Positions 8,112 to 61,078 of a stretch of 64,000 bases of DNA are shown in pieces. Source of the stretch: Candidatus Micrarchaeota archaeon (GTDB taxonomy: Archaea > Micrarchaeota > Micrarchaeia > Anstonellales > Bilamarchaeaceae); contig JBBIHC010000002.1 in NCBI GenBank assembly GCA_037447235.1, forward strand, positions 5,951 to 69,950. Direction: 5' to 3'. Position 1 is the first letter of the stretch, and the number at the start of each line of letters is the position of its first letter. The notes under the pieces were generated by a model. That model did no database searches. It was given only the letters and a program-made list of their open reading frames with translations, and was not told the DNA's origin. The position numbers were made by a program, and so were the translations under genes.

Positions 8112-8954
8112 ATGAAGAACATCGTTTTGTTAATCATAATTTTGGCAGCATCGCTGTTTTTGTTTGGCTGTTTTGAAAGCCAGACAAAATGCACGAAAAG
8201 TTCTGACTGCAAGGATTACGAGGTTTGCAACATTCAGACAGGCGTTTGTGAGCTTAAGCCCGGATACTGCAGCATTGATAGCGATTGCAATGATAGCCTG
8301 ACAACCTGCAACAGAACAACTCATCAGTGCGTTTTTCTTGAAGGCAGGTGCAGGATTGACAGCGACTGCCCTGTTTGGCAGGTGTGCACTGTTGGAAACA
8401 ACTGCGTAGCTGCAAGTGGCTTCTGCGATTCTGATGCACAGTGCGACCCGGCTTTTGAATACTGCGACCCTGAAAGGCACAAGTGCGAGCCAAAGGCAGG
8501 CTTATGCAGGAGCAACAGCGACTGCGACGGTTGGGAAGAATGCAATCTTACATCAAGAAAATGCGTTGTTCTGCCCGGAAGATGCAACATTGACGGTGAT
8601 TGCGAGAGCTGGCAGGTTTGCGATGTCAAGACGCATTACTGCAAGGCAAAGGCGGAATATTGCATAAACGATGCTGACTGCAAAGAATGGGCTAAATGCG
8701 ACCTTGAGCAGCATCGCTGCGTGGCAAGGCAGGGCTTCTGCGCCGCAGACAACGACTGCAACTGGTGGGAGTACTGCAGCCCGCAGACGCATAAGTGCGC
8801 AGTGAGAAAGGACCACTGCAATTCAGGGAGCGACTGCGGCAGCTGGCAGGTTTGCGTGGAGCACCGCTGCAAGGCAAAGGCAGGGTACTGCGATGTTGAC
8901 CAGGATTGCGTTGCCGGAGAGACCTGCAATCAGGCAACACACAGATGCCAGTGA
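8112..8954 (+). CDS. Secreted lipoprotein made of about ten tandem 27-residue four-Cys repeats.
   Basis: The signal peptide carries the lipobox LFGC. The repeats follow C-x2-DSDC-x2-W-x2-C-x3-TH-x-C-x4-G, for example CRIDSDCPVWQVC, CNIDGDCESWQVC and CINDADCKEWAKC. Their period is about 81 nt at the DNA level. Confidence 0.6.
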   Translation: MKNIVLLIIILAASLFLFGCFESQTKCTKSSDCKDYEVCNIQTGVCELKPGYCSIDSDCNDSLTTCNRTTHQCVFLEGRCRIDSDCPVWQVCTVGNNCVAASGFCDSDAQCDPAFEYCDPERHKCEPKAGLCRSNSDCDGWEECNLTSRKCVVLPGRCNIDGDCESWQVCDVKTHYCKAKAEYCINDADCKEWAKCDLEQHRCVARQGFCAADNDCNWWEYCSPQTHKCAVRKDHCNSGSDCGSWQVCVEHRCKAKAGYCDVDQDCVAGETCNQATHRCQ

Positions 8955-9023: not shown

Positions 9024-9422
9024 ATGTTTGGAATGGTTGGGATAAGGCTGCTTGATGGGAGCGTTAGCATAAAAGAGGATAAGCCGCCGAAAGGCCTTTC
9101 TATAGACCTGAAGATAACAAAAATCTCAAAGACCGACAGGGAAGATCTCGCGAATGTCAGGTTTTCCTATCTTGTGGGCTACACGCCGAATACTGCTGTC
9201 CTGAAGCTTGAAGGCGAGGCGCTGGTGACTGATGAACCTAAGGAATTGGATAAAATGGTTTCATCCTGGAAAGAGAAGCACAGGATAGACGAGAATATGG
9301 CCGCCAACATCCTGAATGCGATTAACCCGTATGTAACGCATAACGCTTTGCTCGTTCTCAGGGCGTTCAACCTGCCTCCGCACATCGCTCCTCCCCCAAT
9401 AATGCCGTCAAAAAAGAAGTAA
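9024..9422 (+). CDS. Hypothetical protein.
   Basis: A 132-aa ORF in the same orientation as the downstream membrane protein, with tight spacing to it. Confidence 0.35.
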   Translation: MFGMVGIRLLDGSVSIKEDKPPKGLSIDLKITKISKTDREDLANVRFSYLVGYTPNTAVLKLEGEALVTDEPKELDKMVSSWKEKHRIDENMAANILNAINPYVTHNALLVLRAFNLPPHIAPPPIMPSKKK

Positions 9423-9428
9423 GTTGGT

Positions 9429-10157
9429 TTGATGGAGCTCAAGACCGTCTTTTCCGCTTACGGCGAAAAGCCATTTCTTTTCATCTGGGGCTCAGTGCTT
9501 TATGTCTTCTTTTCACTGCTTGTGCTGTTTGCCACGACAGGCATACTCCTTTTTTCCTCACTCGCGCTTTTCTTTGCGGGTTTTCCGCTTTCTTTTGAAG
9601 ACTACACGACCATCACCCTCTACGCAATCCCCCTTCTCGCTGCTGTGTTTTTTTTGATATACATGAACGGCTGCATAACGGCAGCAACAATATACGCATA
9701 CAAAAAAGCGCTTACGGGCTCGCATGTTTCCCTTGTTGAGTTCTATCATTACGGCCTGTCGCGCGGCCCGATGATCTTTTCAATAGGCATAATGCGCGAT
9801 TTCTTCATGCTCATCATAATCGGCATCGGCGTAGCGCTCTATTACTATGCCCTGCAGGACTGGGAATACGGAATCCATCTTCTCGCTTTGTATTCTCTCT
9901 CGGTTTTCTTTGTCTTCCATCTAACCGCAAAACCCGGGATAATCGCGTGCGGGCTTGGCGCAGAGCCATTTGAGGCATTCAAGGAGCTTTATTTCGTGTT
10001 TGCAGAAAAGCACATATACTATGTGAGCTTTTTCTTCATCTACAGCATCATCTGGCTACTGAATTTCATCCCGCTTATCCAGTTTGTCTCCCTTCCTGTT
10101 CTCTATCCGCTTGTTTATAGCGCGCTTATCACGATGGTTGAGGAAGAAAGAAAGTGA
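9429..10157 (+). CDS. Polytopic integral membrane protein.
   Basis: The 242-aa protein has 6-7 hydrophobic helices. It ends in TGA 4 nt before the next ATG. Confidence 0.5.
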   Translation: MMELKTVFSAYGEKPFLFIWGSVLYVFFSLLVLFATTGILLFSSLALFFAGFPLSFEDYTTITLYAIPLLAAVFFLIYMNGCITAATIYAYKKALTGSHVSLVEFYHYGLSRGPMIFSIGIMRDFFMLIIIGIGVALYYYALQDWEYGIHLLALYSLSVFFVFHLTAKPGIIACGLGAEPFEAFKELYFVFAEKHIYYVSFFFIYSIIWLLNFIPLIQFVSLPVLYPLVYSALITMVEEERK

Positions 10158-10161
10158 TGCT

Positions 10162-10470
10162 ATGGAAAGGCTGTACGAAGTCGCATTGGAGAAGAAGCAA
10201 GCCTTGACGAAAGTGCTTGAAGCAGACCCTTATGCTACTGATAGTTTTGCCAGGGTTGGCTACAGAATTCGTGACGGCGCCTCGCTCGGCGAGGACAAAT
10301 CAAAGGTTTATCTTTATATTTCTTCCTCAGCGGATTTCATAAGAAAGGCAGATGCAGCGCTGAAGGATATTGCTGTTGTGGCTGAAGGGAAAAAAGCAGA
10401 AAGTATAATCAAAAAAATAAAAGAAGAGGAAGAGGCGGCAGAGCAGGGGCTTGGCTCCCTTTTTGGTTAG
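10162..10470 (+). CDS. Small acidic protein with a ribosomal P-stalk (aP1/L12e-like) C-terminal tail.
   Basis: The 102-aa protein starts with MERLYEVALE, which resembles the archaeal P1 MEYIYAALLL. It ends with ...KKIKEEEEAAEQGLGSLFG, a match to the conserved stalk C-terminal motif (EEE...GLxxLFG). The middle region is atypical for P1. Confidence 0.4.
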   Translation: MERLYEVALEKKQALTKVLEADPYATDSFARVGYRIRDGASLGEDKSKVYLYISSSADFIRKADAALKDIAVVAEGKKAESIIKKIKEEEEAAEQGLGSLFG

Positions 10471-10576
10471 CCGGTTGTTTGGCAGTGCTTTGTGCAGGTA
10501 CCCGATTTTTTACAAAACATCACATTTATAAATATTTAATGTGTTAATATATATCAGTTAGCGGTTATAAATCACG

Positions 10577-13500
10577 GTGAGCGGGATGAAGATAAAATAT
10601 TCAGGCAGAAAGGATGCGAAAGATTTAAATAGCGTTAGTGCGACTAGTTATAAGCCGAAATCTTTCTCGGCAAAGCATCCGTTGCTTGCTAAAATACTGG
10701 CAACATGTTTAATGTTTGAAGGTGTGTGTATGCCGTTTGGAAGTGTTAGGGCGGCCCCGAGGGAGGCGGCGGGAGCGGAAAAGAAAAACGAAGTGGCAGA
10801 GCAGGCAAAAATCCTAAAAGAATTCACTAATCTTATTCCTAAAATTAAGGCGGAGCAAAAAACTGCCCGCGTGTCTGAAAAGTTTCAGGGCTACATAACT
10901 GCAGACAGCGAATACGCTAAACAAATCTTTAAACTTTTGCAAAAGTTGGGTTTTGTAATAAAAATTAACGATAATGCGAGAAGAGACGGCATATACATCG
11001 GACAAGGCACTAATATATTGTCGGTTTATCTATTTGACCAAACGGTTGAGGGTGTTGTGAATCTCGGCAAACTGGATGATCTGTACAAGAAAGTAATTGA
11101 AGTATTTAACCAGAAGCAGGCTGAAAGTTTGGCTGAGGAAGCTTTGGTAGGGCTGGTGCAGGCAGTGCCGGCAAAAACCGCTGGCAAGGAAGAGGAGCCT
11201 ATCCCGGTCGGGCTGGCTGAGTCTGAAAAAACTAAAGAAACTAAGCCACCAGAAGCCCAAGCCGAAGAGCCCGCTCATGCTGAAGTTAAACAATCTGTGA
11301 AGGTAGATGTAGAAGAGGTAATAAAGGACTTTAATGGGTTTTTAGACAATTGGTCTTTGTTTGCTATAAAGTTAAATCTTTCTCTCGCGAGCATCGCCCC
11401 TCCCCAAAAAATCAACAAAAACGATAAACAAGCCATTCAAAAAATAGCACAGACATTGTTTAAGGATTCAGAAAATTTGCTAGGCCATTTCAATAAAATG
11501 CAAAACAATGATGATAAACTACTTTTTTTGTCCAATCATATTAAGGCACTGCTTCACCTGCAAGACAAAGCCCTCCTGGAGTACATAAAAGAATCTGAGA
11601 CCACGCGCGGGGAAAAAGAAGCGGTTAAAAAAATACTAAAAAGTAAAGGTGTCAAAGTTGACGGCTTTTCCATATACAGCGTTGTAGGCGCGAGAATGCT
11701 TTTATTGCGCATAAACGAGATGGCTCTGCGACACCACGAAAACAAAGCACAGAAGTTGTTCCAAAATAAAAACAAAGTCAAAAACGACATGGGAGAAAAC
11801 TATGAAACTTTCAAAAAAATCGTTGATTTGGAGCACGAGCGTTTACTGCATATGCACGATCCTGATCTTAATAGGGCCAACAAAAGACTATTTAACAGTC
11901 TTGTTTCTAACAAACTTTCTTCCGTTGGCAGCAGTGTCGTACAAAGCGCTTTCGGCGCCGATGATGGATTTTTCAAGTTGCTGGAAGATATACCCGAAAA
12001 TCTGGACCCCAATAAAAAAGAAATCGCATTATATACACTGTTGTCAATCGCAGAGCTTAAGCTTTTATTGGACCTAAAAGAAAAAGACGTTATTAAAAAA
12101 GGAGACAAAACTGGTGCAGAGGCTAGCCTTGGGCTTGCGAAAGACCAGTTTGTAAGGCTTTTCATTAACCGAGAAAAAGAAGAAGAGAATATGAGGCTGC
12201 AAGACCAAAACGTCGACCTTTCAAAAGCCATCAATGACAACGCCGCGTTGGTAATTGCGAATGCAGGCATTGCGAAGATTCTGCCTTACTGGCACGATTT
12301 TGCCGCTTACATAAACAGGAATTATTATCAAGTTGACAAACCGGATCTTAAAAAAAGATACGATGCTGTTTTTGACTTGTTGGCGTATAATTTGAACGTA
12401 ACAAACATCCAAAAAGGATACTACCCAATGAGATACGCGGCCATCGCACAATTGCGCCCCTCGCTGACGACTTCAGCGGATAGAGAATATGTTGGAACTT
12501 TATTTACTAATGTTGTAGGCCCGGAACAAATAGAAAAAATATATAAGAAAGGTGCAGGCTATCATCAGGCATTTACTCCTGCTTTGCTGGGCATAGGCGG
12601 AGGAAGCACCAATTACATTGTCGGCGACCTAATGGTTAAAGAAATCATTAGCGACAAATTTTGGAGTACTGCTGATAACATTAGGGTGGAATCCCAAAAT
12701 AGTAGTCTTGAAAAAAGAAAGGACTATCAAAAAAATTCAGCTCTTCAAGACATATTGCAGAAAGCAGGAGTATGGTATATCGAAAAACTGCTGGCTTTTG
12801 GCGCGCCAACCGCAGTTGAGATAAAGAAGGAGGAAAAGACAGAAGAAATGCAGGCAGAAACTACGCCGCCTGCCATACTGCAACTTCCGTCCCTCCTGCC
12901 AGAGCGGTTCCCGCAGCCTTTTATGCCTTCCCGCTACACTGCCAAGGCAGGCGAAACTAATTACATATTCGGCGAAAATATGTCAGCCGCGCTGACATCT
13001 ATGTTTGGCGAGGAAAAGACAAAGGGTTTATACGATGCATTTGCAGAAGGCTTAAATGCCAAAGACCCCGAACAGGTTAAAAATGCTGCATCTGCTCTTT
13101 ACGATATTATATTAACCGGTTGGAATCCGACGAGCGATGCGGACAGCGGCACAAAAGCAGCTATTTTAAAAGCGCTTGAGAAGGCAAAAGAAAGCGGCGA
13201 TACAGCGGATTTCAAGATGGCGCTTATGACATTCAGCGACCGCCTTGGGGTCAACCTTTTGGAAAATTTCTATACTTACCGTTTTGAAGGCGATACGCTG
13301 AGAGTCAGGATCCCCATCGGGATTGAGGTGGCGCTCCGCTTGGGCTTGTCTGAATCTGAAATAAGAAGCAAAGTAGAAGCGCGGGGAGTCGCGTTCCTGA
13401 CAGGGTTGGCTGTTCAGCTTGGCTATCTTTACCGCCCGGTCAATGGCAGATTATCAGAGTACCAATTAAAGGGCTTTGATGAGCAAGGAAAATTAATAGT

Positions 13501-14188
13501 TGAACCGACAGGGGAATCCATCTCGGCAACGCTTGAAACGCACGCCATTGACATTAACACAGCTCTTGACTTGTTGGCTTTCAAGGCGCCTGAAGCTTTG
13601 GGGGGTATTGGGGTTATAAGGGTGAATGCGGCTGTTGAAATAGACAAGGCATCCCTGAAAACAGCCATCCACGGCCAGCCGCTTGCCATAAGCGACTGGG
13701 TTGCTTCATTCAAAAGCATAGGAATAAGCGCTGACTTTCCTGGAGGCGAAGGCTTAAAGATAAGATCAGTCGGCCTCGGAGGATGGGGCATAGGCAGCAT
13801 AAGCGAAGAAGGGCTGAAGTGGGACCCAACGAGCAACTGGTATGGAAATGTTGTGCTGGGGTGGACTGAAAAGTTGGATGAATATCAACCACTTGCGTTG
13901 CAGCGGCTGACATTTTATTTAAGCCCGACAGTTCTTTTCGGCGGGCAGACAGGCTTTTCGTTGACAGGAGGCATTCAGTCAGTCCATAGAATTTCAGAAA
14001 ACTGGTATGCTCTGCCGGCGCTAAACGCAACATACCTTTACGACGGCAGGAATAATTATGGCCAAGGGTCCACCGAAGTCCTGTTCAATTTTGCGCCTTG
14101 GGGGCTTGCTGCCGGCCTTGGAGCTTCTTTGGACAGCAACCTTAATTATTCAGTTATGCTTTTGTTCAGGTTTAACCTGGAGAGATAA
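10577..14188 (+). CDS. Very large ORFan protein of 1203 aa. Has an N-terminal hydrophobic anchor, a long K/E-rich helical region, and a Gly/Ser-rich beta-like C-terminal 250 aa.
   Basis: A long uninterrupted ORF preceded by an AT-rich promoter. The N-terminus has the hydrophobic stretch LLAKILATCLMFEGVCMPFGSV. The C-terminal segment has alternating hydrophobic residues (...GFSLTGGIQSV...NYSVMLLFRFNLER). It is the first gene of a three-gene operon. Confidence 0.5.
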   Translation: MSGMKIKYSGRKDAKDLNSVSATSYKPKSFSAKHPLLAKILATCLMFEGVCMPFGSVRAAPREAAGAEKKNEVAEQAKILKEFTNLIPKIKAEQKTARVSEKFQGYITADSEYAKQIFKLLQKLGFVIKINDNARRDGIYIGQGTNILSVYLFDQTVEGVVNLGKLDDLYKKVIEVFNQKQAESLAEEALVGLVQAVPAKTAGKEEEPIPVGLAESEKTKETKPPEAQAEEPAHAEVKQSVKVDVEEVIKDFNGFLDNWSLFAIKLNLSLASIAPPQKINKNDKQAIQKIAQTLFKDSENLLGHFNKMQNNDDKLLFLSNHIKALLHLQDKALLEYIKESETTRGEKEAVKKILKSKGVKVDGFSIYSVVGARMLLLRINEMALRHHENKAQKLFQNKNKVKNDMGENYETFKKIVDLEHERLLHMHDPDLNRANKRLFNSLVSNKLSSVGSSVVQSAFGADDGFFKLLEDIPENLDPNKKEIALYTLLSIAELKLLLDLKEKDVIKKGDKTGAEASLGLAKDQFVRLFINREKEEENMRLQDQNVDLSKAINDNAALVIANAGIAKILPYWHDFAAYINRNYYQVDKPDLKKRYDAVFDLLAYNLNVTNIQKGYYPMRYAAIAQLRPSLTTSADREYVGTLFTNVVGPEQIEKIYKKGAGYHQAFTPALLGIGGGSTNYIVGDLMVKEIISDKFWSTADNIRVESQNSSLEKRKDYQKNSALQDILQKAGVWYIEKLLAFGAPTAVEIKKEEKTEEMQAETTPPAILQLPSLLPERFPQPFMPSRYTAKAGETNYIFGENMSAALTSMFGEEKTKGLYDAFAEGLNAKDPEQVKNAASALYDIILTGWNPTSDADSGTKAAILKALEKAKESGDTADFKMALMTFSDRLGVNLLENFYTYRFEGDTLRVRIPIGIEVALRLGLSESEIRSKVEARGVAFLTGLAVQLGYLYRPVNGRLSEYQLKGFDEQGKLIVEPTGESISATLETHAIDINTALDLLAFKAPEALGGIGVIRVNAAVEIDKASLKTAIHGQPLAISDWVASFKSIGISADFPGGEGLKIRSVGLGGWGIGSISEEGLKWDPTSNWYGNVVLGWTEKLDEYQPLALQRLTFYLSPTVLFGGQTGFSLTGGIQSVHRISENWYALPALNATYLYDGRNNYGQGSTEVLFNFAPWGLAAGLGASLDSNLNYSVMLLFRFNLER

Positions 14189-14202
14189 TTTCAGGTGGAT
14201 GT

Positions 14203-15672
14203 ATGTTTGATGAGAAGGTTGAAAAGGCGCTTTGGGTTATTGATGTCGCTGCAGGAAACAAGGCAGCGGCAAATCCAAACGACTGGGCATCAGTTGTGCT
14301 TTACTCCACAAGGGTTATGCAACTGTATGACCTCGCCGGCAAACTAAGCAACTGGTCAAAATATGTCTATGACAAGAGCAATGCGATTTTGGGAGCAGAT
14401 GCGGTTTACAAACTCAAAGCCGCGAGAAAGGACGCCCTTATGAAGCTTGCTTCCCTGAACCCGAAGCAGTTAAGTGAGATAAAGCCACTACTAAGGGAAG
14501 ACATTGTCGGGCTGAGAATATTCGACGTTGAGCCTGAAGTCCGGGAGGTGTACTATAAGCTGTTAACTACCATCGCCAGGGAAACCGAGATGAGGCGCTA
14601 CAAGATTGCGCTGACATCTCCAACACCACTTTCAATCTTGTCAAGCGAGCCGGGCTATATGGTTGTTATGATGGACAAGCCGCACCTTCCTGCCGAAACC
14701 GTGGCTGAATTTGAAAGCGCGAGCGATGCCGCCGCTTTCTTCTCAGCTTTTCTCACTCTTGCTCTTTATGCCAAGCAGAAAAGAATGTTTGATGCCGAGC
14801 AGATAGCCAAGGATAAGCTTGCCTCAAAATACGCGAGGGAGTCATACAAGATTTTCAGCAGAAGCATAAGGAAAGACAAGCACATCCCAATAGCAGAGGC
14901 AATACGCTCAGGAAATGTCTGGGAGGCAGTGGCTGACCTGCAGATGGAAGAAAGCTTTTACAATGCCTTTAAGCACATGTGGAAAGCCACCCTTGTATCT
15001 TTCGGCTTCGGCGAGATGAAGCTTACATCTTTTGTGTCAGAAACTACGCTGGCAATAGATAAGTACGGGCTTGAAAAAATGGCTGAAGCGTTTGAGAAAA
15101 ACAAAAACGCGACAAAAGAGTATCTTACGGCGATATGCCTTCTGAATACTGCCATTCAGGATTATTTCCTTGACAGGAGAATTTACCTTTCAAGGGAGCT
15201 TGAGCCGGTCCTGCCTTCTGATATGGGCTGGAAACTTCCTCTAACTGTTGTTATGGAATGCACTGCTGATTGCAAGCCCATAAAGCCCCTGGACAACCTG
15301 CCTGCCTCATTGTTCGGCATAAAAAACATCAGGATAGACACTGCTGACAGCAAGTTTGTCTATTTTGGGAAAGCCCCGGAGGATTTCAAGATTGACCCGA
15401 TTAACGGGACTGTGGCAAATGTTATCATTTATTCCGTGCCTGACAGCGAGTTTTACAGGGGAAACCTGTTTTTCATCCCTGAAGCATTGCACTGCCTTGC
15501 TTCCATCGCGATAAACAGGATATTGGACGGCAGGGTTGTCGCGGCCATAAATTCCAATCCGGGCTTGAGAAAGCTGAAGTTTATTTCAGAGGATGGTAAA
15601 AACGGCATTGCAGGATACTTTACCGATTACCTTAAAACTCAGCAAAAAATCGCAAAGAGGTCGAAAAAATGA
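14203..15672 (+). CDS. ORFan protein of 489 aa, probably cytoplasmic.
   Basis: Lies 15 nt downstream of the previous gene, and its stop overlaps the next start. It has no signal peptide. Confidence 0.45.
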   Translation: MFDEKVEKALWVIDVAAGNKAAANPNDWASVVLYSTRVMQLYDLAGKLSNWSKYVYDKSNAILGADAVYKLKAARKDALMKLASLNPKQLSEIKPLLREDIVGLRIFDVEPEVREVYYKLLTTIARETEMRRYKIALTSPTPLSILSSEPGYMVVMMDKPHLPAETVAEFESASDAAAFFSAFLTLALYAKQKRMFDAEQIAKDKLASKYARESYKIFSRSIRKDKHIPIAEAIRSGNVWEAVADLQMEESFYNAFKHMWKATLVSFGFGEMKLTSFVSETTLAIDKYGLEKMAEAFEKNKNATKEYLTAICLLNTAIQDYFLDRRIYLSRELEPVLPSDMGWKLPLTVVMECTADCKPIKPLDNLPASLFGIKNIRIDTADSKFVYFGKAPEDFKIDPINGTVANVIIYSVPDSEFYRGNLFFIPEALHCLASIAINRILDGRVVAAINSNPGLRKLKFISEDGKNGIAGYFTDYLKTQQKIAKRSKK

Positions 15673-17975
15673 AAAAGCTGTTTTATCTTATCTTGTTGCT
15701 GGGCTTGTCTTTTGCCCTTGAGAGCTGGGTTGGCACTGAGTACTATGGTTTTATTGATCCAAATAACTACCGGATGATAGCCCGCCACGGCGTTTATGTC
15801 GGAAAGGCGTCCTGTGCCGTGGATGGCGTTGTTTTGAGCGGCGACCCTTGCGAGCAGGGAGAATCAACAGTATGCGCAGGCACTGTTCTCAGGTACACTC
15901 CTGCCATAAATGCGAACTGGCGAACCTCTGATGTAAGGACCGCGACGCGCTATCTGTCCCTTGATAACCTGCCTTTTGAGGATTATTCCTCTACAAGCAC
16001 CTATCAGGTAAAATGGCTTGACAATGAAACTTATTACAGGTATGATGCCGAAGGAGAATGTTTTCCCGGCCTTGGCTTGGGGAACGGCTGCGTGAAACAG
16101 GATATATGGGATTCCTTCAATGAAGGCTTGGGAGAGCTTTATCCAGAACTTGGCGGCCCATCCACATTCAACTATCCGCAGGCGGTTACATACGGCGTGC
16201 TTTATCCGAATACTAGCTTTTTTTCAAACAAAAAAGGATATCCAATGGTCTTTTGCCACGGAAGATACAGGGTCAAGTACGGCCTGGACATTTATGTGGT
16301 GCTGGAAGAAGGAGATATGGCTGATTTGGCAGGCCCTGAACTCACCGAGAGGGTTTTCACATTTGACAACCCGGGCAGGTATGCGATTACCACCACATTG
16401 TCTGATCTTGACTGTTTCGGTGCAGTGGTCGGCCATCCGCGCAACGACAACAACAACCCCCCAAACAACATAAGCAATTTCGTTCTTCATTTTTTTGGCA
16501 ATGATGTCCACGGCTCGTTTGATCCGCACAGGAGTTTTTCAGACCAACACATAATAAATGTTGTTGATGGAGATATGGCGATTGATGTTAGAAGCGACAA
16601 CATAATAGCAAGAGACGGCTATGGCCACTATCTTCTGGCAACAGTGGTGCAGAATACCGGGGATTTTGCCGTCAACATAACCAACGTGTCTGCAGGCGCC
16701 CTTCAGGGAGCCTCTGCAACGCCTTCAACATCAAACTGGTGCCGGACATATTTTGGAAACCGGTTGGAATGCTTCCTGGGCAATGGTTATAATACGGCAA
16801 TACAGCCGGGGGCAAACACCACCCTTTACACCATCTTTTCATATGCCGGGCAGGAATATGAGCTTTGCGGCCAGCCTTCGATATTTAAGCTTGAATTCGT
16901 GCCTGCCGGCCCTGCCTGCGTTCCGGCAAATGAGAGTGGTTTTGCCGATGTTGGCGGCCCTTGCGGCTCCTATCCGTCCTGCGTGATAACTCCCCAGAAC
17001 AGCACCATCGGCCCGTTTGAGGTCCACCAGTGGAACGTTTCCTGCTTCACTGAACAGGGCGCACCAACATCCTGCACAGGAAACGACTGGCGGCTTGAAG
17101 GCATAGACGGAGACATCATTACCGGGACCAGCGAATACGCTCACGCGGTTTCCTATGAGGAAACAAGAACAACAGGGCAGATAGTTTATGTCCAGGGCAA
17201 TTCAAGATGCTCTGCCGGCATCACAGTTGACCCGTCATCAGTTGTCGCTGAATGCGACTTTGACCCTGCTTCAGCCTACCTTGATGTTGGCGAGTCGCAG
17301 GATTTTGATCTCCTTTGCTCTTTGAACAGTCAGCCAAGAACTCCTGACAGCGCTGATTACAACCTGACTGGAAATCTTGCCGGCACCATCCAGCCTTATC
17401 CCAACCCGGTTGAAGGAGCCATATTCGTTTCTTCAGATATGAGTGCCGGAAACCTGATGGGCATCGGCTGGTTCACCTCGCCCTCAGTTCCGACTTTGAG
17501 GGGCGCGGTTGCGTTTGCCTACATCCAGGTTGGCTGCGAGGAAGACGAGATATTGCAATGCCATCTTGAGTTCGTCGGCATCGGGCCCGGCGGAGAATAT
17601 GTGTATGAGCAGGTTTGCGAGTGCATACCTGCTGGCCAGAACCAGACCGGCGGCGGCGATGACAGGGAAAAGAAATTCTGCGTGATAGCGCCTCCTTTCC
17701 AGCAGATATCACCGCTTCAGCCAGGCAGAGCCAGCGTATCCTGTTTCATTGAGGACGAAAATGGCGTGCCCAGGGAGGTCGAATGCGGCCTGGTCAGCTG
17801 GAGGATAACAGAAAGCCTTGCAAGGCTGTCAAACCAGTACGGCGAAAATGTCGTTTTCACTGCTGTCGTTGGCGCTACCGGCGATGGTACGCTAACCGCT
17901 GAAATGGCTGACAACAACAAGGAATGCGAAGCAGCATTCAGGGTTACACCCTACACCTGCCAGGAAATAAGCTAA
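15669..17975 (+). CDS. Secreted Cys-rich ORFan glycoprotein of 768 aa.
   Basis: The signal peptide is MKKLFYLILLLGLSFALESW. It has more than 25 Cys, and many N-x-S/T sequons (NET, NTS, NIS, NIT, NVS, NTT, NES, NST, NQT). It is translationally coupled to the upstream gene by an ATGA overlap. Confidence 0.5.
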   Translation: MKKLFYLILLLGLSFALESWVGTEYYGFIDPNNYRMIARHGVYVGKASCAVDGVVLSGDPCEQGESTVCAGTVLRYTPAINANWRTSDVRTATRYLSLDNLPFEDYSSTSTYQVKWLDNETYYRYDAEGECFPGLGLGNGCVKQDIWDSFNEGLGELYPELGGPSTFNYPQAVTYGVLYPNTSFFSNKKGYPMVFCHGRYRVKYGLDIYVVLEEGDMADLAGPELTERVFTFDNPGRYAITTTLSDLDCFGAVVGHPRNDNNNPPNNISNFVLHFFGNDVHGSFDPHRSFSDQHIINVVDGDMAIDVRSDNIIARDGYGHYLLATVVQNTGDFAVNITNVSAGALQGASATPSTSNWCRTYFGNRLECFLGNGYNTAIQPGANTTLYTIFSYAGQEYELCGQPSIFKLEFVPAGPACVPANESGFADVGGPCGSYPSCVITPQNSTIGPFEVHQWNVSCFTEQGAPTSCTGNDWRLEGIDGDIITGTSEYAHAVSYEETRTTGQIVYVQGNSRCSAGITVDPSSVVAECDFDPASAYLDVGESQDFDLLCSLNSQPRTPDSADYNLTGNLAGTIQPYPNPVEGAIFVSSDMSAGNLMGIGWFTSPSVPTLRGAVAFAYIQVGCEEDEILQCHLEFVGIGPGGEYVYEQVCECIPAGQNQTGGGDDREKKFCVIAPPFQQISPLQPGRASVSCFIEDENGVPREVECGLVSWRITESLARLSNQYGENVVFTAVVGATGDGTLTAEMADNNKECEAAFRVTPYTCQEIS

Positions 17976-27075: not shown

Positions 27076-28671
27076 ATGGAGACTTTTACTGACAGCGAGA
27101 AAGCGGTACTTTCAAAGTTCGTCAGTAATGCCGAAAGGGATGTTTTCGTGCTCAAGAACCTTCCTGAAGTCGTGAAGGGCGCGCTTTTCTCAAGATACAG
27201 CAGAAGCACGAAGAGCCTGAGAAGGCTTCTGCTTGACGAATTTTTGGGCAACAGGGACCTTAACGTGGGATGCCGCCAGGGAACGGCAGAAGAGGATTTT
27301 GTGCTCACGAAAAAGGCAGAGGAATTTTACGACCGCGTCCTGGTCGGATTCGGCGATGATTCGGTTGCCGAGCTCGGCGGCGCCCATATAGCGCTTGAAA
27401 ACATTTCCATCCTCGCAACCAAGGCGATTGAAGACAGCCGCATCGGCATTTCGCCTCTGGAAAAATCCACGCGCTATGTTTATTTTGATAAGAAGGTTAA
27501 TGGAAAGTGGTTGTACTATGAAGAACCGCTCCTTATGAAAGAGATGCCTGAAAGCTACGCCGCAGCCTGCGAAAAATGTTTTGAGACATACGCCGCGCTC
27601 ATACCAAAAGTCGCAAAATACGTCTCTGAAAGGCTGGAGAGAAAAGAGCTGAGCGAGCGGGCTTATGAGGCGGTCGTCCGGGCGAAGACCTGCGACATAT
27701 TGCGCGGCATTCTGCCTGCCGCCACGCTCACCAACGTCGGCTTGTTCGGCAACGGCAGGGCCTTTGAGTACCTGATAACAAAACTGTACGCGAGCGGGCT
27801 TGCCGAGCTTGAGGGGCTCGGAAAAGCGATGGAAGCCGAATTGAGGACAACCATCCCTTCTTTCGTGAAGCGTGCCGGCGAGAAGCATGGCAAAGAGATG
27901 CAGGAGTATATAAAAAGCGCATCGCTGGCTGCCGCTTCCCTTGCGCCGCAGGATTCTTCAGCAACACAGAAAGCAGTCCAACTTGTTGATTTCGATCCAG
28001 ACGCATACGCCAAAGTGGTTGCGGCAATTCTTTATCCGCACAGCCGCATCCAGCTTTCTGAACTTGAGGAGCGCGTCCGGAAGATGAGCAAGGAAGAGAT
28101 TAAGCGGGTGATAAGCGAGCATCTTGGGCAAAGAATGAACCGCAGGCAAAGGCCCGGGAGGGGGTTTGAGCGCGTTTATTACACATTTGAGATATGCACC
28201 AATTTCGGCGCCTACCGGGACCTTCACAGGCACCGCATACTCAGCCAGCAGAGGCAGATGCTCTCAACCAGGCTTGGCTATGATATGCCGCCGGAAGTGG
28301 TTGAAGCAGGCTATCAATCTGATTTCGCGGACGCGATGGAAACCGCGAGGATCAGCCATGAGGAAATCGCGGCCCGTTATCCAAAGCAGGCGCAATATGT
28401 TGTGCCTCTTGCTTACCGCCTGCGATGGATGGTTACGATGAATGCGCGCGAGGCTTATCACCTCTGCGAGATAAGAAGCACCCAGCACGGGCATCGCGAT
28501 TACAGGCGCGTGGCCCAGGAGATATATTTTGAAATAAAGAGAGTCCATCCGCTTATCGCTGAGAAGATGATTGTTGACCTGAACGAGTATGACTTTGAAC
28601 GGCTGGAATCCGAGAAAAAAATAGACAGGAAAATAGAGGAGATAAAGAAAAAGTACGGCGAAAAGGGCTGA
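27076..28671 (+). CDS. thyX: Flavin-dependent thymidylate synthase ThyX-like, long form.
   Basis: The ThyX signature AYRDLHRHRILSQQRQMLSTRLGY sits in the C-terminal part. A strong SD (GGAGGGAG) lies upstream. The 531-aa length is comparable to the long chlamydial ThyX proteins. Confidence 0.5.
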   Translation: METFTDSEKAVLSKFVSNAERDVFVLKNLPEVVKGALFSRYSRSTKSLRRLLLDEFLGNRDLNVGCRQGTAEEDFVLTKKAEEFYDRVLVGFGDDSVAELGGAHIALENISILATKAIEDSRIGISPLEKSTRYVYFDKKVNGKWLYYEEPLLMKEMPESYAAACEKCFETYAALIPKVAKYVSERLERKELSERAYEAVVRAKTCDILRGILPAATLTNVGLFGNGRAFEYLITKLYASGLAELEGLGKAMEAELRTTIPSFVKRAGEKHGKEMQEYIKSASLAAASLAPQDSSATQKAVQLVDFDPDAYAKVVAAILYPHSRIQLSELEERVRKMSKEEIKRVISEHLGQRMNRRQRPGRGFERVYYTFEICTNFGAYRDLHRHRILSQQRQMLSTRLGYDMPPEVVEAGYQSDFADAMETARISHEEIAARYPKQAQYVVPLAYRLRWMVTMNAREAYHLCEIRSTQHGHRDYRRVAQEIYFEIKRVHPLIAEKMIVDLNEYDFERLESEKKIDRKIEEIKKKYGEKG

Positions 28672-29656: not shown

Positions 29657-30313
29657 ATGCTTATGCATTCAGCCAATGTTGAGAAAGCGGCGGAGGCCCT
29701 CAAGAGAGGAAGTTTCCTGGTTATGTACGACGGCGACGAGCGGGAAGGCGAAGCAGATCTTCTCTTTCACGCGGCATTTGCCACCCACGACAAAATAGAA
29801 ATGATGAGAAAAGAGGCCGGGGGCCTGATGTGCGTCGCGCTTGGAAGCAAAGAGGCAGAAAGGCTGAAACTGCCGTTTTATACTGATTTGCTGCGAACGG
29901 CCGGCTTTGGCGATATTGCCTGCCGAAGGACTGCCTACGGCGATGAGCCAGCGTTTTCGCTTTCGGTGAATCACAGGCAGACATACACCGGCATAACCGA
30001 TCAGGACAGGGCATTCACCATCAGGGAGCTGTGCACCGTTCTCCAAAGCGGCGCGCCATACGAGAATTTTGTTAAGAATTTTTATTCTCCCGGCCATGTT
30101 TTCCTTCTCAGAAGCCGCACTCTTGAGAAAAGACACGGGCATACCGAGCTGGCTACAGCGCTTGCCGAAAAGGCGGGCATTACTGCCGCCGTTGTCCTGT
30201 GCGAAATGCTTGGCGAGAGAAAGGCCATGAAAAAGGAGGATGCGGCTTCCTATGCGAAAAGAAACAACCTGATTTTTATCGAAGGCAAAGAAATTTTGGG
30301 GGCGGTGCTGTGA
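29657..30313 (+). CDS. ribB: 3,4-dihydroxy-2-butanone-4-phosphate synthase.
   Basis: Conserved DGDEREGEADLLFHAA and the surrounding DHBP synthase signature. Confidence 0.75.
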   Translation: MLMHSANVEKAAEALKRGSFLVMYDGDEREGEADLLFHAAFATHDKIEMMRKEAGGLMCVALGSKEAERLKLPFYTDLLRTAGFGDIACRRTAYGDEPAFSLSVNHRQTYTGITDQDRAFTIRELCTVLQSGAPYENFVKNFYSPGHVFLLRSRTLEKRHGHTELATALAEKAGITAAVVLCEMLGERKAMKKEDAASYAKRNNLIFIEGKEILGAVL

Positions 30314-31197
30314 AAATTGCAGTTGTTGACACGATGTTTTCAAGGGTAAATATGGGGCAGATTGCCCTGGACGAGCTTAAGAAGAATTATCCTGATGTCG
30401 AGGTTATAAGGACGACTGTTCCCGGCATAAAGGACCTTCCGGTTGAATGCAAAAGGCTTCTTGACGCCGGCTGCGACATCGCGCTTGCGCTTGGGATGGT
30501 TGGCGGCGCGCCGGTTGATGCGGTTTGCGCGCACGAGGCATCGCTGGGAATACAACAGGCAAAGCTCATGACAGGCAAGCACATTATTGAGGTTTTTGTG
30601 CACGAAAACGAGGCTTGGAGCGAAGACGGGTTTTTTTCAATATGCGAAAACAGGACGAGAAAGCACGTTCATAACGCGATCTGGCTTGCTTCCTCGCCGG
30701 AGAAACTTGTTGAGAATGCGGGGAAAGGCGTTCGGCAGGGAAAGGAGGACGAGGGACCGATAATTCCGGGAAAAAGAAAAAAGATAAGGCTCGGCATCGT
30801 GGTCGCTTCTTTCAACAGCGAGATAACCGGGGAGATGCTTGAAGCGGCAAAGAAAAGCGCGGAAGAGTTTGATGCGGCAGTAGCCGCGGTGATTCCGGTC
30901 AGAGGGAGTTTTGAGATTCCACTCGCAGCAAAGAAACTGCTTATGGAAAAAGACATAGACTGCGTTGCGGTTCTGGGGGCGGTCGTGAAGGGGGAGACAG
31001 CACACGACGAAGTCATAGTGAAAACGATAGCCGCAAGGCTTAGCGCCCTTTCGCTTGAAATGAGAAAACCGATAGGATTTGGCGTGATAGGGCACGACGC
31101 CGGCTGGGAGGAGGCAGAGGAGCGCGCGGCGGAATACGCAAAGCGCGCAGTTGAGGCGGCGGTGGAGCTAACCGAGGTGCTTAAAGGCTATGGTTGA
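30310..31197 (+). CDS. ribC-ribH: Fused archaeal riboflavin synthase (RibC, N-terminal half) and 6,7-dimethyl-8-ribityllumazine synthase (RibH, C-terminal half).
   Basis: The GTG start overlaps the ribB stop as GTGA. The N-terminal half (KIAVVDTMFSRVNMG...CAHEASLG...HIIEVFVHE...AGKGVRQG) aligns with Methanocaldococcus-type RibC. The C-terminal half (RLGIVVASFNSEIT...GAVVKGETAHDEVI...GWEEAEERAAEYAKRAVEAA) aligns with RibH. There is no stop between the two halves. Confidence 0.7.
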   Translation: MKIAVVDTMFSRVNMGQIALDELKKNYPDVEVIRTTVPGIKDLPVECKRLLDAGCDIALALGMVGGAPVDAVCAHEASLGIQQAKLMTGKHIIEVFVHENEAWSEDGFFSICENRTRKHVHNAIWLASSPEKLVENAGKGVRQGKEDEGPIIPGKRKKIRLGIVVASFNSEITGEMLEAAKKSAEEFDAAVAAVIPVRGSFEIPLAAKKLLMEKDIDCVAVLGAVVKGETAHDEVIVKTIAARLSALSLEMRKPIGFGVIGHDAGWEEAEERAAEYAKRAVEAAVELTEVLKGYG

Positions 31198-40891: not shown

Positions 40892-41398
40892 TTGAAGATA
40901 AAACTGACGCCGGAGCTTGCCTATGTCATCGGGCTCTGGAGAAAAAGGCGCTCTTTTGAGGGGCTTGGCATACACGCTGAGCAGAAGCTTTTGGAAATTT
41001 TCTCGCAACAGGTGCTTGCCCAGAAACTCACGGCGCCGGAAAAACTCCTTGCGGACGGCAAGAGGGTGTATTTTTACCATACCGCATACAAGAAATTTTT
41101 TGGCGAGGTTGAAAAGGAGCAGCTTGAGAGGTTCAAGTACCTAAACGAGTATGCCGCCAATTATCTGGCCGGCCTTTTTGACGCAGTGGGCGAAATTGAC
41201 GAAAAGGGCGTTGTTTCCCTTTCCAAGCTTAACAGCGAAGACGAACTCATGCTGCTGCGCCTTGGATTCAAGACAAAAAGAAAAAAGGAAAAGTGCATAA
41301 TAGAGAAGCCGCTGGTATTTCTGGCATTCATAAAAAACTATGTAAGGGCCTCAAAGGACCAGAAGGCATTTGATTTGATTGAAAAATTAAGAAAATAG
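40892..41398 (+). CDS. Free-standing LAGLIDADG-type homing-endonuclease-like protein.
   Basis: It has two LAGLIDADG-like helices, LAYVIGLWRKRRSFEG and NYLAGLFDAVGEIDEKG. The start is TTG. It is not embedded in an intron or intein. Confidence 0.5.
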   Translation: MKIKLTPELAYVIGLWRKRRSFEGLGIHAEQKLLEIFSQQVLAQKLTAPEKLLADGKRVYFYHTAYKKFFGEVEKEQLERFKYLNEYAANYLAGLFDAVGEIDEKGVVSLSKLNSEDELMLLRLGFKTKRKKEKCIIEKPLVFLAFIKNYVRASKDQKAFDLIEKLRK

Positions 41399-41409
41399 GG
41401 AGGGCAGGG

Positions 41410-41523
41410 CTAGAGCTCGCCCACTCTTCGTTTTATCTTTCTCTTCAATCTTCTTCTCTTTTTCTTTACCCACTTCCAGCGCATCTTGTTCTTCTTTTTC
41501 CATTTTCGCGGCTTTGAACCCAT
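41410..41523 (-). CDS. rpl41e: Ribosomal protein eL41 (L41e). This small ORF is absent from the ORF track.
   Basis: The minus-strand translation is MGSKPRKWKKKNKMRWKWVKKKRRRLKRKIKRRVGEL. The core MRWKWVKKKRRRLKRKIKRR closely matches the eukaryotic eL41 [25 protein letters not shown]. An SD-like GGGGGAT lies upstream of ATG 41523. The internal Met at 41484 is an alternative start. Confidence 0.6.
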   Translation of the reverse strand: MGSKPRKWKKKNKMRWKWVKKKRRRLKRKIKRRVGEL

Positions 41524-41597
41524 CTTATCCCCCGCAATAAACGCAATATGGTAGTGACACTATTGTTTGGCACATTTTTAAAAGTATGCTGGCTTGT

Positions 41598-41837
41598 TCA
41601 TTTTTTTCTTTCGGTGATAAGCAGGCCGTCTATTATGCCGTAGGCATAATTGGCAGCCCCGAAGCCGCTGAAATAGTCGCCGGTTGCCAGAAAGTGCTCG
41701 GCATCGCTTAGATAGTTTTTTGCCCACTCATAAGCTTCCTTGTATTTCCTTTCCAGGCCGGCTTCCCTGAATTCCCCCAATATGCGTTTTAGTTTTTCCA
41801 CATCCTTTTCAGCCCGTTCTTTTTGGTCCATGGCAGG
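41598..41837 (-). CDS. Hypothetical small protein.
   Basis: Taking the start at the internal Met (MPAMDQKER...) avoids overlap with the Lhr 3' end. The conserved-looking GDYFSGFGAANYAYGIIDG motif is present. Confidence 0.35.
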   Translation of the reverse strand, partial: PAMDQKERAEKDVEKLKRILGEFREAGLERKYKEAYEWAKNYLSDAEHFLATGDYFSGFGAANYAYGIIDGLLITERKK

Positions 41838-60955: not shown

Positions 60956-61078
60956 TGCCAAGGGGGGAATTCGAATCCCCGACCTCTCGATTTCCCAGCT
61001 ATCATCGGCTTTCGCCTCAACACTCATAGGGTTTTTTGCCTATGAGTCGAGCACTCTAACCAACTGAGCTACCTTGGC
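60956..61078 (-). tRNA. tRNA-Met (anticodon CAT; elongator Met or Ile2) with a roughly 49-nt intron at the canonical 37/38 position.
   Basis: The minus strand reads GCCAAGG-TA-GCTC-AGTTGGTTA-GAGT-G-CTCGA-CTCATA[49 nt]A-TCGAG-AGGTC-GGGGA-TTCGAAT-TCCCC-CCTTGGC-A. Acceptor, D, anticodon and T stems all pair. No CCA is encoded. A TATA-like TTTTTAATC sits about 26-34 nt upstream. Confidence 0.8.

Follow-up and report, generated by a model that had tools for sequence, protein, structure and literature searches.

In archaea and eukaryotes, the ribosome draws in translational GTPases and ABCE1 by means of a universal handle, the C-terminal tail of the P-stalk. To our knowledge, this tail has so far been found only on the stalk proteins P0, P1, P2 and P3. 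The locus described here raises the question of what such a tail does on a small protein encoded away from the ribosomal genes. [quoted passage not shown] A previous reading of the sequence alone (hereafter, the sequence-only reading) had offered two alternatives, namely a divergent P1 relocated from the ribosomal operon, or a protein outside the ribosome that uses a borrowed stalk tail for binding translational GTPases.

We find that the tail is of the stalk type and that the body, in its predicted structure, is not that of P1. The first alternative is not supported by these results and the second one stands, as a proposal drawn from the motif: the protein is probably a stalk-tail borrower and not a P1. 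The sequence-only reading overlooked that the gene belongs to a large conserved family and that it forms an operon with a membrane protein gene instead of with the giant ORFs on its other side. A known stalk peptide is here carried by a new, non-stalk scaffold, and it is carried by a sizeable uncharacterized family of archaeal proteins. In the following, we describe this family, its tail, its body and its genomic neighborhood, weigh the explanations that these suggest, and compare the family with known systems.

The gene and its product

The ORF opens with an ATG at 10162 and closes with a TAG stop codon (10468-10470); translation of 10162..10470 yields the 102-aa product MERLYEVALEKKQALTKVLEADPYATDSFARVGYRIRDGASLGEDKSKVYLYISSSADFIRKADAALKDIAVVAEGKKAESIIKKIKEEEEAAEQGLGSLFG.

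10162..10470, + strand: gene of the stalk-tail protein, 102 aa, stop included (ORF and translation)
10423..10467, + strand: codons of the C-terminal stalk-type motif, the last 15 residues (EEEEAAEQGLGSLFG)

The longest mechanical ORF begins further upstream, at a TTG at 10084, and the stretch thus added overlaps the 3' end of the preceding gene. The methionine of MERLY is the alignment start for all 14 close homologs, which are 57-100% identical to the window protein, and it is the first residue in eight of them, each 102 aa long. The nearest genomes belong to Micrarchaeota; among them, a Candidatus Bilamarchaeaceae MAG has a copy that is 72% identical to the window protein.

A large family of archaeal proteins

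An exhaustive profile search over 1.84 billion representatives retrieved 242 clusters at E <= 1e-3, and most of the family matches listed are full-length proteins of 93-112 aa. Named members come from Micrarchaeota, Aenigmarchaeota, Woesearchaeota, Hydrothermarchaeota, Methanosarcinales and Methanocellaceae, and are annotated as 'hypothetical' save for a few automatic misnomers; three JGI entries are auto-named 'nitrogen regulatory protein PII'. Family members carry no precomputed Pfam domains. Likewise, sequence searches of Pfam, NCBIfam and the PDB gave no meaningful match, either for the window protein or for 40 diverse members (27-59% identical to it); a PDB match to a designed TIM-barrel (7mcd) was dismissed as a repeat artefact. 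Full-text searches of the literature outside subscription journals yielded nothing describing the family. We also considered the hibernation factors Sri/Dri and Hib, but these are CBS or HPF-type proteins and unrelated to the family, and we discarded a viral origin, as a search of IMG/VR found no relative.

Some members deviate from the common architecture. P0053 (194 aa), P0113 (175 aa) and P0151 (195 aa) consist of two tandem α/β domains with a tail on the second one only, and one of these three has a Cys4 zinc-ribbon-like insertion. Long-form members of 124-153 aa carry an insertion of ~20-50 aa after a DPY motif (loci L032, L035 and L036).

The C-terminus is a stalk-type tail

A six-frame scan of the 64-kb window finds a single stalk-like tail, EEEEAAEQGLGSLFG, and neither the window nor 40 related loci yielded a second one. 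We searched 2384 mechanical ORFs, taken from the window and 37 related loci, for the tail pattern; it matched members of the family only, and we therefore do not regard it as a chance occurrence.

Across the family, the tail follows the pattern A-x-x-G-Phi-G-x-Phi-F-G-COOH and is the best-conserved part of the protein. Of 151 representative homologs, 138 show G-Phi-G-x-Phi-F followed by 0-4 residues to the end, a single G being the commonest ending, and the tail consensus of the 151 reads I-[EK]-x-E-E-[ED]-x-A-x-x-G-F-G-x-I-F-G. When the 40 diverse members are aligned, G98 and F101 are the only invariant columns, with A93 and G96 nearly so. In the AlphaFold2 (AF2) model of the window protein, confidence is low over the last 12 residues, with pLDDT values falling to 62 and 48, as would be expected of a flexible tail. 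A membrane-targeting amphipathic helix of the MinD/FtsA type was considered for this region and rejected, since an invariant acidic run precedes the tail and the consensus has no basic residue in its last 12 positions.

For comparison, we assembled the best 120 matches to Pyrococcus horikoshii aP1, a biased sample made up mostly of Thermococcales. The P. horikoshii query sequence agrees exactly with 3A1Y over residues 1-58 and with 3WY9 over residues 77-108 of the PDB chains. The logo built from 119 true P1 tails reads E-E-E-A-[LA]-A-G-L-[GS]-A-L-F-G and coincides with that of the family at A(-8), G(-5), Phi(-4), G/S(-3), Phi(-1), F(0) and G(+1), with an acidic run preceding both. When the family profile is compared with P. 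horikoshii aP1 in hhalign, the last 13 residues align, with 62% identity. The sequence-only reading was hence right to identify the last 15 residues of the window protein with the C-terminal peptide of P1/L12e.

The correspondence extends to the residues that matter for binding. G96, L97, L100, F101 and G102 of the window protein correspond to G102, L103, L106, F107 and G108 of P. horikoshii aP1, so that all five positions are kept. In aP1, the mutants L103S, L106S and F107S lose binding to aEF1A, binding to aEF2 depends on the same three residues and is abolished by G102S, and a salt bridge links the G108 carboxylate to K324 of aEF1A (PMC4267659, PMC5887453). L100 of aP1 has a moderate share in aEF1A binding; its counterpart in the window protein is E94. 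Furthermore, the family consensus GFGxIFG differs systematically from the GLGALFG of the P1 set at two hydrophobic positions, and factor specificity could therefore differ as well; the GLGSLFG of the window protein is the most P1-like version. According to a crystal structure, an 11-residue peptide of the aP1 tail suffices for binding to aEF2 (PMC5887453), and the motif can therefore function when detached from the remainder of P1. Stalk tails also function between different archaeal species.

The predicted body is not that of P1

The following structural statements rest on predictions, which for the window protein derive from an AF2 model built from a 14-sequence alignment (mean pLDDT 86.8 for the 102-aa protein). 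Strands are predicted at residues 2-8, 34-38, 48-54 and 71-74 and helices at residues 9-20, 57-67 and 77-100, which together would form a ferredoxin/PII-like β-α-β-β-α-β domain followed by one long helix. This last helix is joined directly to the α/β domain in the model; a flexible hinge is absent.

This architecture bears on the first of the two alternatives, according to which the protein would be an aP1 that has diverged strongly, left the L11-L1-P0-P1 cluster and continues to dimerize on P0. Such a protein could be expected to share with aP1 what the window protein does share, namely the tail, an acidic character and a comparable length (102 aa, with about 105 aa for aP1). Nevertheless, PF00428, which is carried by 120 of 120 true P1 proteins among the matches listed, was found neither in the window protein (E <= 10) nor in any of the 40 diverse members (E <= 1). 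BLASTP of the window protein against P. horikoshii aP1 found nothing, and the profile comparison with aP1, far from covering the full length, is confined to the 13 tail residues mentioned above. The helical N-terminal domain of P1, which mediates dimerization and P0 binding, is absent from the predicted structure, where a β-α-β-β-α-β fold takes the place of a helical bundle. The Ala/Pro-rich hinge is missing too: the aP1 hinge contains 24% Ala and 8% Pro, whereas the window protein has one Pro in total and none within residues 75-92. It had been suggested that the N-terminus, MERLYEVALE, resembles the MEYVYAALLL of P1, but this likeness is superficial, because residues 2-8 are predicted to form a strand; the accompanying remark that the central part does not look like canonical P1 agrees with our results. 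Four of five testable defining features of P1 are lacking, and the tail alone is kept.

Evidence at the level of phyla points the same way. Aenigmarchaeota hold both a canonical P1 (P0385) and members of the family, and in the cultured Micrarchaeote Mia14 only L37e, S17e and S27e have been reported missing (PMC5498576). Altogether, we consider it extremely improbable that the protein is a relocated aP1. Because its predicted structure lacks both the dimerization/P0-binding domain and the flexible hinge of P1, it is probably not part of the stalk.

As to what the body resembles instead, the best Foldseek matches are PII and PII-like proteins (SbtB, GlnK and PstA), with E = 0.015-0.1 and TM scores of 0.4-0.5, none reaching E <= 0.001. 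No PII HMM matches the window protein or the 40 diverse members. Neither sequence nor fold similarity to aEF1B (the EF-1beta exchange domain) was found for the window protein. The family is acidic, with a median pI of 4.9, and protein-protein contacts are therefore favored over rRNA binding.

The window: an operon with a membrane protein

The sequence-only reading had correctly placed the gene outside the ribosomal operon, between a membrane protein and giant ORFs; the membrane protein gene ends 4 nt before it, and a 1203-aa ORF follows after 106 nt. The surroundings of the gene are as follows.

9024..9422, + strand: p132, gene of a 132-aa protein, 6 nt upstream of M1, no Pfam/NCBIfam match
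9429..10157, + strand: M1, gene of a 242-aa multi-pass membrane protein, ~7 hydrophobic segments, no Pfam/NCBIfam match
10471..10576, + strand: AT-rich spacer of 106 nt, T6 run at 10506-10511, TATA-like boxes at 10525-10534 and 10565-10572
10577-17975, + strand: three consecutive large ORFs of 1203, 489 and 768 aa, no credible Pfam match

With the stop codon of M1 just 4 nt from the ATG of the tail gene, the two genes are probably co-transcribed and translationally coupled. p132 is kept at the same position in L003, L010, L012 and L013 only, and is possibly the first gene of the M1 operon in the clade of the window. A single-sequence AF2 model of M1 (pLDDT 59) was too poor for a fold search.

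On the other side, if oligo-T is taken as an archaeal termination signal and TTTATAAATA as a TATA box, the spacer likely marks the end of the operon and a separate promoter for the giant ORF downstream. The promoter/terminator scan that we ran is of the bacterial type and uninformative for an archaeon; it is from the spacing and from archaeal signal conventions that we infer a grouping of the tail gene with M1 and not with the giant ORFs.

The giant ORFs have counterparts in two related loci, of 1195 and 1261 aa in L003 and of 1154 aa in L010. They fill the position that a winged-helix-like (wHTH-like) gene, encoding a protein of 160-180 aa, occupies in most other Micrarchaeota.

No ribosomal-protein or translation-factor genes were found among the window ORFs scanned. 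By its content the window is archaeal: it carries an intron-containing tRNA and encodes FtsZ, ProRS, a Cdc48-like AAA ATPase, ATP-dependent DNA ligase and ThyX, and also SecD/F, an Lhr helicase, AlaRS and Pus10. Several of its other features are listed here for completeness.

8112-8954, + strand: Cys-rich 280-aa protein with a signal-like N-terminus and many C-x-x-x-x-C…C repeats, weak DUF5885 match
27076-28671, + strand: ThyX of double length, 531 aa, with two Thy1 stretches
30199-31197, + strand: lumazine synthase ORF, 332 aa, with two DMRL_synthase stretches
60956-61078, - strand: tRNA of 123 nt, Rfam 58.8 bits, presumably intron-containing, absent from the ARAGORN output

The double-length ThyX is also found in the syntenic loci L001 and L007, and the lumazine synthase ORF may be a duplication or a fusion. 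A 'tmRNA' of 670 nt called by ARAGORN at 41133-41802 (+) is almost certainly a false positive, the host being archaeal.

Gene context in relatives

In most Micrarchaeota loci, a homolog of M1 lies directly upstream of the tail gene. The gap between the two measures -4 to +8 nt in 24 of 26 listed places, the window included, and 19 nt in L005 and L006; the M1 of the window is 42% identical to the copy in L001. In three loci the position is taken by a different membrane protein, M2, and in 24 Micrarchaeota loci a strongly conserved protein of 160-180 aa, containing …SKATFYNRVLPRLRRVGMIKVERE…, is encoded directly 3' of the tail gene.

L025 5272-6000, L026 5150-6004 and L030 5285-5977: M2, a multi-TM protein whose gene abuts the tail gene upstream, as M1 does
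L001 10317-10802, L005 4241-4756, L007 2229-2732 and 21 further loci: wHTH-like protein of 160-180 aa
L032 5398-6270, L035 2068-2842 and L036 4642-5420: long-form tail gene with rps8e

M2 belongs to a Micrarchaeia sublineage, with L026 on the 1.03-Mb contig JBAZFC010000001.1. It is unrelated to M1 by sequence (hhalign probability 0.2%), and as it occupies the position of M1, the small protein is coupled to one or the other of two distinct membrane proteins. The 160-180 aa protein is winged-helix-like by eye; the window and its closest relatives lack it. M1, M2, the wHTH-like protein and p132 belong to no Pfam or NCBIfam family. In Aenigmarchaeota, two 96-aa genes upstream of the tail gene in L041 were considered as tandem paralogs and found to be unrelated.

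The coupling to membrane proteins invites a further explanation, in which the protein is PII-like and regulates the membrane protein encoded next to it, its tail serves for contact with that protein or the membrane, and the likeness to the stalk is a matter of convergence. The best Foldseek matches fit this idea, as do the automatic PII names of the three JGI entries. The same holds for the gene order: in most Micrarchaeota loci a multi-TM gene directly adjoins the tail gene or overlaps with it, with M2 standing in for M1 where noted, and pairing with a multi-TM gene is typical of glnK-amtB and sbtB-sbtA. However, the similarity in fold is weak (E >= 0.015, TM about 0.45) and no PII HMM match accompanies it. 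Most members outside the Micrarchaeota have no membrane-protein neighbor, yet their tail is invariant, and an acidic tail makes a poor membrane-targeting helix. Moreover, convergence is improbable for seven positions in the same register together with an acidic run and a C-terminal Gly. We therefore regard a PII-like regulator with a fortuitous stalk likeness as unlikely.

Other loci point to the ribosome. The long-form tail gene lies 7-9 nt downstream of rps8e, the gene of ribosomal protein S8e, in the three Micrarchaeota loci listed above, which form one sublineage, and in L034 an L15e gene is found within about 1 kb of the tail gene. These neighbors would suit an additional, lineage-specific ribosome-bound protein, whose domain docks away from the P0 helices and whose tail provides an added factor-recruiting arm. 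The tail is the same in kind as those of P0 and P1, and ribosome structures can easily fail to show flexible proteins of the stalk type. Against such an arm speak the acidic character of the family, which does not imply a basic surface, its location outside ribosomal operons in most lineages, and the predicted lack of a hinge that would give it reach. Besides, the archaeal stalk already carries seven tails. It is built of P0 and dimers of aP1 (PMC5887453). We judge a role as an extra arm to be quite unlikely.

In Methanocellaceae, Methanosarcinales and Aenigmarchaeota the tail gene is solitary, and no neighbor is common between phyla. A direct link to a gene for a translational GTPase was not found in any of the contexts examined. 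There are some contextual ties, to translation through the neighboring rps8e and to the membrane through the coupling with multi-TM genes.

A possible function away from the stalk

A conserved family that displays the handle on an unrelated, hinge-less body implies use of the motif away from the stalk, where it could serve to sequester, store, deliver or regulate factors. In our best reading, the protein carries a free stalk tail and would act as an adaptor or decoy, catching translational GTPases away from the ribosome. The G-Phi-x-x-Phi-F face of the tail and its terminal carboxylate would enter the same hydrophobic grooves of aEF1A, aEF2 and aIF5B that aP1 uses, and factors held in this way would be captured off the ribosome; ABCE1 is possibly bound as well. 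Since the short aP1 peptide suffices for aEF2 and the critical residues are present, the tail likely engages aEF1A, aEF2, aIF5B or ABCE1. Having no anchor on P0, the protein would compete with the stalk and act as a decoy or throttle. Alternatively, it may be an adaptor that bridges a factor to a partner of its α/β domain. In the Micrarchaeote of the window, this second partner would most likely be the co-translated 7-TM protein M1, and such a partnership would place the tail and the bound factor at the membrane.

Factor binding is deduced from a short motif, some 10 residues in length, and further points weigh against it. A predicted helix leads into the tail without a long flexible linker, which may restrict the access of the tail to the factor grooves, and the genomic context differs between phyla. 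For the proposal that the protein is a non-stalk carrier of the stalk tail and that its function lies in factor binding through this tail, we put the chances at about even. The more far-reaching idea that archaea encode a conserved stalk mimic, a free factor-binding peptide, tethered to the membrane in Micrarchaeota, that throttles or relocates translation, is tentative and somewhat doubtful.

If this last idea is true, the family would represent a previously unrecognized class of translation regulators and the first natural carrier of the P-stalk motif outside the stalk. The finding also provides an initial clue to the function of an unnamed family outside Pfam and NCBIfam. Members from Methanocellaceae and Methanosarcinales may bring experiments nearer to tractable organisms; the named members found all come from MAGs.

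Comparison with known systems

A close parallel is archaeal aP1 (L12e; PF00428; PDB 3A1Y and 3WY9), with which the window protein shares an acidic run followed by A-x-x-G-L-x-x-L-F-G-COOH, an acidic character and a similar length. It differs in having neither the helical N-domain, nor the hinge, the PF00428 match or the location in the stalk operon.

PII and PII-like proteins (GlnK, SbtB and PstA) are of similar size, have a ferredoxin-like β-α-β-β-α-β core and give a weak fold match; their genes often stand next to one for a membrane protein, as does the family gene in Micrarchaeota. They differ in that they show no significant sequence or fold match to the family and do not carry a stalk-type tail.

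The C-terminal extension of P0 (uL10) and the eukaryotic proteins P1, P2 and P3 present the same tail on different bodies, and the peptide can therefore be viewed as a portable module; however, all of these are integral to the ribosomal stalk. In the eukaryotic tail, GFGLFD, there is one residue fewer between the hydrophobic positions, and the spacing in the family is archaeal. Three family members weakly match the archaeal L10 model of NCBIfam (E = 0.015), presumably through the tail.

Lastly, the proposed mode of action has a synthetic counterpart. Artificial peptide mimics of the P-stalk tail serve as competitors, aimed at the ricin A chain (PMC6162817). Like the family in our best reading, they are free stalk tails competing for stalk-binding proteins; unlike these artificial peptides, the family is a natural and conserved gene product with a folded domain.
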